Virus record (IMG/VR): IMGVR_UViG_3300031994_000010
Coordinates: 64,001-128,000 of that record
Strand: one strand, 5' to 3'
Length of the DNA: 64,000 nucleotides
Source: a virus
Lineage: Duplodnaviria; Caudoviricetes
Shown: positions 37,470 through 41,026 of the stretch, one piece after another
How positions within the stretch are numbered: position 1 is the first letter of the stretch
Layout: each line of letters opens with the position of its first letter
Program-made: the position numbers and the translations under genes
The notes under the pieces: model-generated
Told to the model about the DNA's origin: nothing
Seen by the model: only the letters and a program-made list of their open reading frames with translations
Database searches by the model: none

Positions 37470-38016
37470 CTGTCTTAGTTTCCTTTAAACCTGGGATAAT
37501 CTTCGGACCCATTGGAATGTTTCCTACAGAATTCTTAGCAGTTAAACCAGTTTCATTGCAAAACATTTTCTTTTCCTCGTTAGAAAGGTTTTTGTAAGAC
37601 GTAATAAGTCTCTTTACATAAGTTTCTCTTTTCATAATTTTAAATTTTGTTACCGTTTTGAATAATTAAATCTACTATTTGATCTAAGGTTAAACAATAA
37701 CCTACATTTCCTTCGTCTAAGAATTCGCCCATCATATCACGTAACCAGTTTATAATACTTCTACGATCCTTTAATTGCTCGGCTTCTTCTTCCATAAGAT
37801 CTTCGACTCTACGATCAAATTCTTTCTTTGCTTCAGGTAGGATAGTTTTAATTTCTTCCTTAGTTATGTCTGGATTGTCATACTCAAGAGCTGCAATGAA
37901 GCTATCTCTAGTTCCCTCCCAGTCATCTGGCCACCAGTCATACTCGAATAACATTTCTAGAATTTCAGGAATTGATACTTCTTCCTCAACTTCTACTAAC
38001 TTAGTCTTTTTAACTT

Positions 38017-38952
38017 TCATACTTTAATTACTTTTATAGGATTTAAATTAAATGAACTTGGAGTAATAGTAACTTTACCATTATCCAATAAAATATTTTT
38101 AGAGTAGGCTTCTTGTGGATAAGTAGAAATAGGAAGTTTAGTTCCCTTATTTATATAAGGATAGAAATTAGCTCCAAATGCCACATTACTAATGTTATTT
38201 TTAATAATTTCTTCTTCAAGATACTCATATACTCCATCCTCTATACCTTTAGTACTTCTACCATGAGCCATTAAAGGTAAAAGAACGTGATAGTGAATAT
38301 CTTTACCAAAGTTTTTAGCATACACTATAAAATCTTCAACAGATTTCTTATTAGAAATAATATGATGAATCATTACTTTACAGTCGCCATATTTAAGAAG
38401 ATTATAGATAGCTTTTAAAGCATTTAAACGAACTAACTCATTTCCAAAAGAAACAGCTACTCCTCCAACAAAGTTCTTTGTATATTCAAGAATTTCCTGA
38501 CACCAAGGATCAGAATAATCAGATAAGATTAAACCATTAGTAGTATAGTTGGGAACTACATCAGTTTCAAATACTGTTTGAATAAACTTAGTAAATTGTT
38601 TAGAACAAGTAGGTTCTCCAGTTGAACCAATTGCTATCTGGTATGGGCGTAAACTAGTAGAAACATTACCTCTCTTCTTAATAGGATATTGTTCCATCCA
38701 ACGTTTCCATGTTCCACAAATATCTTCAAAGTCTCTTCCACCCTTACCAGCAGATACATAACAAAATGGACACATTAAGTTACATCTTGTAGTAATTCCT
38801 ACATCATAAAACTCAGATAACTCAGGAGGAAGTTCAATGATTTCTTCATCATCTTCTCCAAGTCTTATAGTAACTAAATTATTCCAAATTGCTCTATAAT
38901 TATAGTCTTTAAGAGTACGAATCTTAGTACCCCAACTTTTAAAATCTTTCAT
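38017..38952 (-). CDS. Radical SAM protein
   Basis: CNLMCPFCY, GEPT, NYTTNG, GGVAVS. Confidence 0.88.
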   Translation of the reverse strand: MKDFKSWGTKIRTLKDYNYRAIWNNLVTIRLGEDDEEIIELPPELSEFYDVGITTRCNLMCPFCYVSAGKGGRDFEDICGTWKRWMEQYPIKKRGNVSTSLRPYQIAIGSTGEPTCSKQFTKFIQTVFETDVVPNYTTNGLILSDYSDPWCQEILEYTKNFVGGVAVSFGNELVRLNALKAIYNLLKYGDCKVMIHHIISNKKSVEDFIVYAKNFGKDIHYHVLLPLMAHGRSTKGIEDGVYEYLEEEIIKNNISNVAFGANFYPYINKGTKLPISTYPQEAYSKNILLDNGKVTITPSSFNLNPIKVIKV

Positions 38953-39257
38953 GCTTCTGTTACTAAATCAATTTTATCTATATTCCAATGTTCTCTACGA
39001 ACTAACTCTGCAGCGGCTTCTGGACAAGTAGCAGTACACCATTCTTTGTCATAGTCACCATCTTTTGTAGTAAATCGTACAATATACTTTTTCATCCTAA
39101 AGCATCGTCTAAATCACCAATTTCACCACCTAATCCTAAATTATCTGGTTCCCAATTATTTGGAATAAACCAACAATTCTTATCAGGATCAAAGTAACAC
39201 TCTTTTGGATAATCTGGATTATCCATATAATCCTGAATTTCAGGCCATTCTACTTTT

Positions 39258-39566
39258 CTATACAAATCTGTCATAATGAAAATTCATTATTACTGGTTTA
39301 TCTTTACATAATTCTTCTACTACTGCTTTATAAAGGTCTAAAAACTTATCCTTATGATAAGGGACATCAATTTTTATTGTATTGTCGTCCCTCTTATCAA
39401 ATTCACTTAGACAAAGGGTTTGCTCTCTTTCCTGTCTCCAACAGTCAAAGAACTCATATAAATCAGTGTGAATATTATCGAGAATTTCTGGATCAGTTCC
39501 AGATATAACGCAAAAAACCTCACTACTAGAATTAGTAATGAGGTCACTTATACTTTTAATTTTCAT
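39258..39566 (-). CDS. 'ITNSSSEVF'-motif protein 4
   Basis: MKIKSISDLITNSSSEVF. Confidence 0.75.
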   Translation of the reverse strand: MKIKSISDLITNSSSEVFCVISGTDPEILDNIHTDLYEFFDCWRQEREQTLCLSEFDKRDDNTIKIDVPYHKDKFLDLYKAVVEELCKDKPVIMNFHYDRFV

Positions 39567-40015
39567 CCTAGATGGTGTCTTTGAATTGATTCAATAGGTT
39601 TCTTTTTATGCTTTAAACCAGGTTCATCAGGTTTATGATTCCAATCGTAGTAAGGTAATTCTACTTCACCTAAATCTTTTGCCCAATATCCTTGAAATTT
39701 ATCTCGAAATTTCTTATTCCAATATAAATTATCAATAATACTCATTAACCAACTTGGTATAGTATTATCACTAGTAGAATGAATTAACAAATCATTCTTA
39801 TGAACATAGTAATACCACTCGTCATCAATATAAGTTTCATCAGATATTGTAGTATATAACATATCATCAATATCTTCTTCAAATAAGTCACAAATACTTT
39901 TTAAGAACTCAGGAATTTCTTGATTAATTTCATCCTGAAATTCTGGTTTAGCGTGAATTATAAATACTTCACTAGAAGAATTTGTAATTACGTCAGATAC
40001 ACTAATAATTTTCAT
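39563..40015 (-). CDS. 'ITNSSSEVF'-motif protein 3
   Basis: MKIISVSDVITNSSSEVF. Confidence 0.75.
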   Translation of the reverse strand: MKIISVSDVITNSSSEVFIIHAKPEFQDEINQEIPEFLKSICDLFEEDIDDMLYTTISDETYIDDEWYYYVHKNDLLIHSTSDNTIPSWLMSIIDNLYWNKKFRDKFQGYWAKDLGEVELPYYDWNHKPDEPGLKHKKKPIESIQRHHLG

Positions 40016-40410
40016 GCTCGATCTTTAATATATTCAATGTTATTATTAAGTAATTCATCTTCAACTAAACATATACGTGAATAACCTGAGTCTGAATCAT
40101 CATCCTCTTCAAAAATTGCTTTATCGAGAAGATCCTTCAAGAAAATTTCTAAAACAGAAGTTGCTTTGTCATTATCCAATTTACTTATCTCTTCTATAAA
40201 GTCGTAATCACTAAGAAAACTAGGAAGACATAGAGTATCTATTACATCACGAAGTTCATAATTTAAAAATTTTTCGAAAACGTTTTGCTTAGTTATAGTT
40301 TTAAAATATTTTTGACATTCTGGAGGAAGTTTATTTAAATCCTTACTATCAATAATAAAAACTTCACTTGACGAATTAGTAATTACGTCAGATACACTTA
40401 ATATTTTCAT
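40012..40410 (-). CDS. 'ITNSSSEVF'-motif protein 2
   Basis: MKILSVSDVITNSSSEVF. Confidence 0.75.
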   Translation of the reverse strand: MKILSVSDVITNSSSEVFIIDSKDLNKLPPECQKYFKTITKQNVFEKFLNYELRDVIDTLCLPSFLSDYDFIEEISKLDNDKATSVLEIFLKDLLDKAIFEEDDDSDSGYSRICLVEDELLNNNIEYIKDRA

Positions 40411-41026
40411 AATTCATAAAAGTTTTTAACCCAGATGCTTTTATTTGATCAATTACATATTTAATAAATTCTGGTTCTCTTTCAAATATGGATTCCTTAT
40501 TTAATATATCATAGGCAAAATCTGGATAAGGAATTTTATCTTCTTCGCGAGTGTCTCCTCCTAAAATAGTGCAATTCTTATATATGTAATCTCTTGTAGC
40601 ATCCTGTGCTTGGTCTGAATCCAAATATAGTAGATTTTCTATATCAGAAATATTGTATTCTTCTAACCAATCTTTTACAGTATATGAAAATTCCTTTTTA
40701 TCAAGGTCTGGATATTTTTCATAATATTCGGATACATCTTCCCAAGTTATGTCATTTTCTGGATCGTTTATCATTTCCTCCCAGTCTCCTAACATACCTT
40801 TACGTATAAACCATAAATCAGCAGCTTGAGAAATATAAAAGACAGTCCAATCACCAATATCAAAAATTCCTCCCATTCCAGAACCTCTGTCTATTTTTCC
40901 TTCATAACCATCTTTATGAATTTCCAACAAGATGTCTTTTAACTCTTTAGCTTTGTACTGAGATGTAAGAAGAAAAACTTCAGAACTACTATTAGTAATT
41001 ACATCAGATACACTTAATATTTTCAT
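40388..41026 (-). CDS. 'ITNSSSEVF'-motif protein 1
   Basis: MKILSVSDVITNSSSEVF. Confidence 0.75.
   Translation of the reverse strand: MKILSVSDVITNSSSEVFLLTSQYKAKELKDILLEIHKDGYEGKIDRGSGMGGIFDIGDWTVFYISQAADLWFIRKGMLGDWEEMINDPENDITWEDVSEYYEKYPDLDKKEFSYTVKDWLEEYNISDIENLLYLDSDQAQDATRDYIYKNCTILGGDTREEDKIPYPDFAYDILNKESIFEREPEFIKYVIDQIKASGLKTFMNYENIKCI

Follow-up and report, generated by a model that had tools for sequence, protein, structure and literature searches.

A candidate tag-directed radical SAM protein modification system in a tailed phage, with cellular relatives in Avs2-like operons

Why should consecutive genes of a phage start with the same short peptide and continue with unrelated sequences, and why should they be followed, in the same operon, by a gene encoding a radical S-adenosylmethionine (SAM) enzyme? 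The question is raised by an array of genes located at positions 38,017 to 41,026 of a 64,000-nucleotide stretch of DNA, hereafter called the window, which corresponds to positions 64,001 to 128,000 of the IMG/VR record IMGVR_UViG_3300031994_000010, a large gut phage of the class Caudoviricetes. Seven genes lie on the minus strand, tightly packed and translationally coupled; four of them encode proteins sharing an N-terminal tag, two are small open reading frames (ORFs), and one encodes the radical SAM enzyme (Table 1). On balance, we take this stretch to be a tag-directed protein-modifying radical SAM system provided with several clients.

The tag has the consensus MKIxSxSDxITNSSSEVF, and 15 of its 18 positions (M1, K2, I3, S5, S7, D8, I10, T11, N12, S13, S14, S15, E16, V17 and F18) are invariant in the four proteins. 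Outside the tag, the four-protein alignment contains one single further invariant column. An earlier note on this DNA had described four consecutive genes that share a near-invariant N-terminus of 18 residues and encode acidic proteins of 102-212 amino acids, and the ORFs, the alignment and the isoelectric points of all four proteins (pI 4.3-4.7) agree with that description. The serine triplet is encoded, exactly as had been reported, by a mixture of AGY and TCN codons (AGT-AGT-TCT, TCG-TCA-AGT, TCT-TCT-AGT and TCT-AGT-AGT). A radical SAM gene with a CxxxCxxC motif resides in the same operon, as the note had said, but is not directly adjacent to the array, two small coupled ORFs being interposed. 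A scan for promoters and terminators revealed no signal dividing the tagged array from the radical SAM gene, and no tagged protein beyond the four was found by a six-frame scan, combined with a hidden Markov model (HMM) of the tag, of the whole 174-kb genome. The four tagged proteins matched no entry in Pfam, PHROGs, NCBIfam or PADLOC scans. In a collection of annotated phages, DNA comparison detected a single relative, distant and without annotation, and no protein matched; a search of the ESM Atlas retrieved unnamed viral clusters only. Fused or longer forms of the tag were not found, which is weak evidence.

The association of tag and enzyme is not peculiar to this phage. All of the 28 loci retrieved from IMG/VR with the tag pattern, residing in contigs up to 212 kb long and including arrays of 1-6 tagged genes, host a homologue of the window radical SAM enzyme (E 1e-32 to 1e-155) within about 3 kb downstream. 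Two additional loci, L001 and L005, were found via single proteins, and have the radical SAM gene likewise downstream of the tagged genes. The search was also run in the opposite direction. Seeding by the radical SAM pattern covered 185,579 species genomes and yielded 70 loci, in about 66 of which a tagged gene lies beside the enzyme gene (62 recognized by regular expression, one, L045, by HMM, and three by the C-terminal tail of a gene whose start is frame-disrupted). Three further matches to the tag only, in Bacillota genomes, adjoin a homologue of the radical SAM gene (E 1e-55 to 1e-76), and carry yet other bodies. Tag and radical SAM lineage thus travel together, near-universally, across bodies and contexts. 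Linkage of TNSSS proteins to radical SAM genes elsewhere had been set beforehand, in the earlier note, as a test of its proposal; linkage is found in both directions, in viral as well as in cellular genomes, and the absence of linkage that would have counted against the proposal is decisively contradicted.

What follows the tag is of variable nature. Related loci provided 116 distinct tagged proteins, whose bodies were clustered after removing the tag. Five recurrent subfamilies emerged, which are distinguished by their conserved C-terminal tails (RHHLG, xSRH, YxIxY, EAxYNG, and SGMGG...NERN). When the profiles of the five phage subfamilies and of the cellular family described below were compared by hhalign, the best probability was 19.5%, and the others did not exceed 2%. 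Lacking mutual similarity, the bodies cannot be regarded as simple paralogues; rather, one tag has been placed on different bodies. The claim that the bodies are unrelated to each other is therefore sustained. They are not random sequences, as three of the four in the window, of the SGMGG, RHHLG and YxIxY types, belong to subfamilies conserved across phages; the body of the remaining 132-residue protein is an orphan, with no relative among the loci collected. The SGMGG bodies of other phages usually adjoin the radical SAM gene. The most widespread subfamily is RHHLG, to which the 150-residue protein of the window belongs: an exhaustive profile search retrieved 1125 representative clusters at E <= 0.001. 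Its members feature three motifs, namely the tag, a central xGDxxIxSxxDN(S/T)IP sequence, in short form (D/E)N(S/T)IP, and R-x-H-L-G at the extreme C-terminus, and a variable insert is found between motifs. In contrast to the bodies, the tag retains a universal core, h-h-[ST]-N-S-S-[ST]-x-x-[FY], in both the viral (n=116) and the cellular (n=58) sets. The asparagine and the second serine are conserved in 100% of both sets, and the flanks of the core differ between them.

The 150-residue client was modelled from 43 homologues. The body is predicted to be ferredoxin-like with a predicted local distance difference test (pLDDT) score of 91, and its first strand spans E16-I20. The tag is the most conserved part of the protein, yet residues 1-5 and 7-12 have pLDDT values below 50. 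Strong conservation of a segment to which the monomer model assigns no place would be expected if that segment acts by binding something else. The body itself provides no functional lead. Foldseek detected nothing in the PDB at E <= 0.001, and wider fold searches retrieved generic ferredoxin-like folds (Z <= 6.9) and, in the Atlas, ABM/Dabb-like rows (TM 0.4-0.56), without any significant match to a specific enzyme family.

The enzyme of the window carries the motifs C57xxxC61xxC64, IGSTGEPT and NYTTNG. The three cysteines do not vary among 14 phage sequences, nor in an alignment of 36 phage and cellular sequences, and CxxxCxxC, GSTGEP and TTNG are invariant among phage enzymes sharing 31-70% identity, which was counted as selection acting on the enzyme. 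A profile of the phage proteins aligns by hhalign to a cellular homologue carrying both PF04055 and a SPASM domain, with a probability of 99.75% and E 1.9e-27 over residues 9-303. Cellular members match the SPASM family PF13186 and have 8-12 C-terminal cysteines, viral members only 0-2; in the window enzyme, cysteines are absent beyond 150 residues past the cluster motif, and so is the C-terminal cysteine motif with which members of the SPASM/twitch subfamily bind one or two auxiliary 4Fe-4S clusters. The residues PSSF of the phage enzyme align to PCSF in the homologue from locus L056, and the C-terminal hairpin region is SPASM-derived and cysteine-free. Homology throughout the length of the protein, together with the missing C-terminal cysteines, indicates that the phage protein is a SPASM-derived enzyme devoid of auxiliary clusters.

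The AlphaFold model of the enzyme (pLDDT 94) compares to solved radical SAM enzymes overall with Z 13-21, as expected of a partial TIM-barrel core, ahead of which residues 9-31 form a three-stranded sheet. The top structural matches are maturases of ribosomally synthesized and post-translationally modified peptides (RiPPs), their N-terminal substrate-binding domain included. SkfB (PDB 6efn), whose precursor SkfA is co-encoded, ranks best (Z 21.2, root-mean-square deviation 3.5, 259 residues aligned, model residues 8-311), and SuiB (PDB 5v1s/5v1t), co-encoded with SuiA, follows (Z 19.6, model residues 6-311). Among the strong matches (Z >=17), these two alone also cover model residues 6-45. Viperins reach Z values of about 17, and are aligned from residue 40 onward only. 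Identity with prokaryotic viperins (pVip) was rejected, the NF038283 score being 22.5 bits against a cut-off of 180, and the PADLOC pVip match (E 2e-6) being restricted to the core. No specific maturase model of NCBIfam reached its cut-off.

SPASM ancestry, a maturase-like structure, a sheet at the N-terminus of the enzyme and a free, strand-prone tag are best accommodated by supposing that the tag directs a modification. According to this view, the radical SAM enzyme would recognize the N-terminal tag shared by each of the four clients. The tag would consist of a strand-prone K-I-x-S-x-S-D-x-I segment followed by the invariant T-N-S-S-S-E, and the strand would probably dock onto the three-stranded sheet of the enzyme, much as leader peptides are bound by RiPP maturases. 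Once docked, the tag would be modified by the 5'-deoxyadenosyl radical, and the residue affected would most likely lie in the N-S-S-[S/T] segment, which is invariant throughout. The acidic bodies, unrelated to one another, would be the cargo that carries out the function, and the modification would control how active or stable they are, or which partners they bind. We infer that the enzyme physically binds the tag, that the tag is the substrate rather than a mere docking handle, and where in the tag the modification falls. A conserved recognition or modification tag borne by variable cargo had been suggested in the earlier note, and the suggestion gains support, as far as sequences and models allow, from the unrelatedness of the bodies, the low confidence of the tag, and of nothing else, in an otherwise confident model, the SPASM descent and the SkfB and SuiB matches.

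The likeness to RiPP systems is partial. As for SuiB and SkfB, substrate genes are encoded together with the enzyme, and the substrates begin with a conserved segment for recognition and vary in the rest of their sequence. Unlike RiPP precursors, which are short leader/core peptides, clients are folded proteins of 100-480 amino acids. Moreover, RiPP maturases may have a recognition element with a winged helix, whereas the N-terminal element of the phage enzyme is a bare three-stranded sheet; its residues 9-31 fall inside the range aligned to SkfB and SuiB, and a winged-helix part is missing. The phage enzymes also differ from the SuiB and SkfB systems because they lack auxiliary clusters, and no protease or exporter is linked to them. 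A precedent for acting on whole proteins is given by the anaerobic sulfatase-maturating enzyme anSME, a SPASM radical SAM protein that modifies a serine or cysteine of whole sulfatases and matches the phage enzyme structurally with Z 15.8. Its target motif is however (C/S)xPxR, not NSSS, and it needs two auxiliary clusters, which are missing in the phage enzyme. The score with the NCBIfam sulfatase_rSAM model is, moreover, far below the cut-off. Tag-directed modification by radical SAM enzymes probably extends the scheme of leader-marked maturases to sets of whole proteins, in viruses and in immune operons.

Several observations weigh against a modification of the tag. The clients encoded in the window are folded proteins of 100-212 residues, and not short precursor peptides. 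The window enzyme remains below the gathering cut-off of Pfam PF04055 (25.6 vs 29.5 bits), which the cellular homologues pass (49.6 and 45.4 bits). It lacks the auxiliary clusters normally needed by SPASM maturases for their redox chemistry, as well as any conserved cysteine outside the SAM cluster, and known chemistries such as formylglycine formation, thioether formation and epimerization are consequently not obviously available to it. Finally, a peptide involved purely in docking or oligomerization would equally be disordered in a monomer model. The main rival explanation is judged unlikely. The tag would be a docking handle only, never modified, by which the tagged proteins plug into the enzyme as exchangeable subunits with an adaptor or regulatory function; their variable bodies would either direct the enzyme to its targets, be they host or phage proteins, nucleic acids or small molecules, or switch it on and off. 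That one enzyme serves 1-6 different bodies per genome fits this model, as do the conservation of bodies as orthologous subfamilies with motifs and C-termini of their own (RHHLG, xSRH, YxIxY, EAxYNG), which is expected of binding or catalytic modules, the unstructured state of the tag in the monomer, and the loss in phages of the SPASM clusters typical of peptide chemistry. Yet the N-S-S-[S/T] core, with its asparagine and second serine fixed throughout, is under a tighter constraint than docking would usually demand, the enzymes closest in structure have the bound peptide itself as their substrate, and the cellular partners retain a full SPASM domain.

Other explanations assign the enzyme a marginal role. 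The tags might hold the tagged proteins together in an assembly, such as a hetero-oligomer formed by strand exchange, the radical SAM enzyme being a co-regulated neighbour that acts elsewhere. An N-terminal segment that is strand-prone and unstructured in the monomer, and the co-expression of several paralogues from one coupled operon, would suit this hypothesis, which is nonetheless improbable, because many loci, including L009, L040, L044 and all the operons encoding signal transduction ATPases with numerous domains (STAND), have a single tagged gene next to the radical SAM gene, and because the coupling to the enzyme persists whichever body and context are found. Self-processing, the alternative offered in the earlier note, has precedents in inteins, histidine decarboxylase and glycine reductase, which are cleaved at Asn-Ser or Ser-Ser bonds. 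With these precedents, and with the tag located at the extreme N-terminus, cleavage at N-S or S-S could be autocatalytic, and would produce a pyruvoyl group or an N-terminal nucleophile without involving the radical SAM enzyme. Self-processing, however, depends on the fold around the site, and the bodies are unrelated; the near-obligate enzyme partner is left unexplained, and fold searches provided no significant match to a specific enzyme family, so that this explanation seems even less probable than assembly. The last place goes to a sorting signal, which is highly improbable. In phage T4, tandem genes for internal proteins combine a short conserved N-terminal sequence, used for targeting to the capsid, with unrelated, fast-evolving bodies. 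By analogy, the tag could serve capsid targeting or export, and the array could encode packaged or injected proteins, the more so as small acidic bodies resemble many injected anti-restriction proteins. But unlike the T4 signal the tag travels with a radical SAM gene and is present in cellular genomes, among which the STAND operons and the Bacillota loci, where no virion is formed; the constant partner is not a prohead protease, and the array is located in the replication and nucleotide-metabolism arm of the genome, not among the structural genes.

In 57 of the 61 bacterial and archaeal loci, the pair of tagged and radical SAM genes constitutes the second half of a conserved four-gene operon, found in Alphaproteobacteria, Desulfobacterota, Acidobacteriota, Verrucomicrobiota, Chloroflexota, cyanobacteria and others. 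The first gene encodes a protein of about 885 residues, in which an N-terminal nuclease-type SMEK domain (SMEK_N, PF21941, 1e-43) is joined to a STAND nucleoside triphosphatase (NTPase) that matches the PADLOC Avs2 models with E 1e-22 to 1e-25. The product of the second gene, of about 121 residues, has a conserved YYSVEY motif and no Pfam match; a phage counterpart of it was looked for among neighbouring small ORFs and not found. The third gene encodes a tagged protein of about 132 residues (MKIKxDFVSNSSSTSF...INAYxNYW), the fourth the radical SAM/SPASM enzyme. The operon of a Rhizobium sp. chromosome (L056:4460-8924) is an example, to which 56 other loci can be added. This arrangement has the look of an Avs variant not described so far, in which three genes would be accessory. 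It is rare, as defence variants usually are: in samples of 401 genomes from each of two phyla, the full-length tagged protein was present in 1/401 and 2/401. In three STAND operons of high GC content (L061, L073 and L106), the C-terminal tail of the tagged protein (…INAYDNYW or …LECxW) is still encoded, but the N-terminal part lies in another frame, a disruption that may reflect an assembly error or gene decay.

A comparable arrangement is known for KpAvs2, which needs Avap2 (DUF6375) and, for some phages, the radical SAM protein Avap1 (Bechon et al. 2024, PMC11564622); the roles of Avap1 and Avap2 are explicitly left unresolved in that work. In either case an Avs2-type nuclease-STAND NTPase sits together with a radical SAM enzyme and a protein of about 130 residues. 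An Avap1-type enzyme (L110) aligns to the cellular radical SAM enzyme with E 2e-6, and the alignment covers what precedes the cluster motif as well. The NSSS operon differs from KpAvs2 in gene order and in having a fourth gene, encoding the protein of about 121 residues. The possibility that the tagged family corresponds to DUF6375/Avap2 was considered and discarded, as no PF19902 match was found in five genomes carrying the NSSS operon, examples of DUF6375 lack the NSSS tag, and hhalign against a DUF6375 protein showed no similarity, with a probability of 0.7%. The small partner not being DUF6375, the two operons are analogous, not the same. Searches of the literature for the motif, for SMEK/STAND proteins associated with radical SAM enzymes, and for Avap1 and Avap2 retrieved only PMC11564622 and general surveys of conflict systems, and no description of the tag, of the client families or of this radical SAM clade was found.

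The pair is not confined to immune operons. In Bacillota, tag and enzyme genes reside side by side without a STAND gene at three loci (L111:2052-4571, L112:1280-2808 and L113:1292-2760). One of the clients is 477 residues long, has a hydrophobic segment and a long charged region besides the tag, is of the membrane or coiled-coil type, and is encoded beside an EspG-like gene. The other two pairs are flanked by FecCD/Peripla_BP_2 transport genes and a radical SAM gene with a BATS domain. Since it is also found away from STAND genes, the conserved unit is the pair itself, and not a defence function.

What the system does in infection can be addressed tentatively. The earlier note had regarded an anti-defence role as possible. 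Homology of the phage pair to the accessory pair of an Avs2-like STAND operon makes counter-defence or mimicry plausible, and the occurrence of the same pair in contexts unrelated to defence weakens the idea. Interference with an Avs2-like immune module, or imitation of it, is accordingly a possible but doubtful role. In a still more speculative version, the phage enzyme installs a new modification on the tag, and the set of modified proteins imitates, titrates or disarms the NSSS/radical SAM module of Avs2-like receptors of the nucleotide-binding leucine-rich repeat (NLR) type; conversely, the receptors may have captured the phage module as bait. If true, this would be the first tag-directed radical SAM protein modification system in viruses, and would add a new layer to the regulation of NLR receptors in bacteria.

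The known substrates of radical SAM maturases are short peptides and a small number of dedicated proteins. The enzymes described here appear, as one lineage, to recognize an 18-residue N-terminal tag that is portable and is borne by many folded proteins without mutual relationship. They occur in large phages by the hundreds and, sporadically, in operons of bacteria and archaea, and the same pair figures as an accessory module of Avs2-like immune receptors. The phage arrays offer a simple entry point, the enzyme being small, the clients small and soluble, and the tag defined. Their study could reveal new radical SAM chemistry, and how Avs2-like operons are regulated or countered, and a transferable tag for the enzymatic modification of proteins would be of practical interest.

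Table 1. Genes of the tagged array and of the radical SAM enzyme, with positions in the window.
Feature	Position	Strand	Remarks
Tagged protein 1, 212 aa, pI 4.3	40388-41026	-	Tag at codons 1-18, 40973-41026; SGMGG body
Tagged protein 2, 132 aa, pI 4.3	40012-40410	-	Tag 40357-40410; orphan body
Tagged protein 3, 150 aa	39563-40015	-	Tag 39962-40015; RHHLG subfamily
Tagged protein 4, 102 aa	39258-39566	-	Tag 39513-39566; YxIxY C-terminal subfamily
Small acidic ORF, 60 aa, pI 4.05	39092-39274	-	Untagged, coupled into the operon; no family match
Small ORF, 48 aa	about 38949-39095	-	Untagged; stop overlaps the radical SAM start codon (ATGA)
Radical SAM enzyme, 311 aa	38017-38952	-	C57-x3-C61-x2-C64
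126-aa gene	37640-38020	-	Directly downstream of the radical SAM gene; 4-nt start/stop overlap

The array is surrounded in the window by primase, nucleotidase and exonuclease genes, and the phage version of the module has no STAND partner. The product of the 126-residue gene that follows the radical SAM gene matches DUF496 barely above the Pfam cut-off (25.1 vs 23.2 bits, E 2e-5). In the syntenic relative L005, a gene for an ADP-ribosylglycohydrolase (PF03747) is located two genes downstream of the radical SAM gene (L005:9361-10155), and has no counterpart at the matching position of the window.

The radical SAM gene is split in several relatives (L001:7597-9771, L027:1951-4126, and also L041 and L043). 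In L001, a GIY-YIG/NUMOD ORF of about 330 residues separates the N-terminal piece (...PFQIAIG) from the C-terminal one (STGEPT...), and a scan of this split gene against Rfam gave no match to group I intron models. Both in L001 and in L027, homing-endonuclease ORFs are inserted exactly between IAIG and STGEPT, inside the SAM-binding motif; homing endonucleases often occupy such sites, and insertions of this kind are typical of conserved, functional genes. One phage relative of the enzyme (L016:11361-12305) has Cx5Cx2C (CSTGRCSFC) in place of CxxxCxxC. Within the tagged array, the end of gene 1 overlaps the start of gene 2 by 23 nt (40388-40410), and the tag-coding DNA of gene 2 doubles, in another frame, as the C-terminus of the gene 1 product (…MNYENIKCI).

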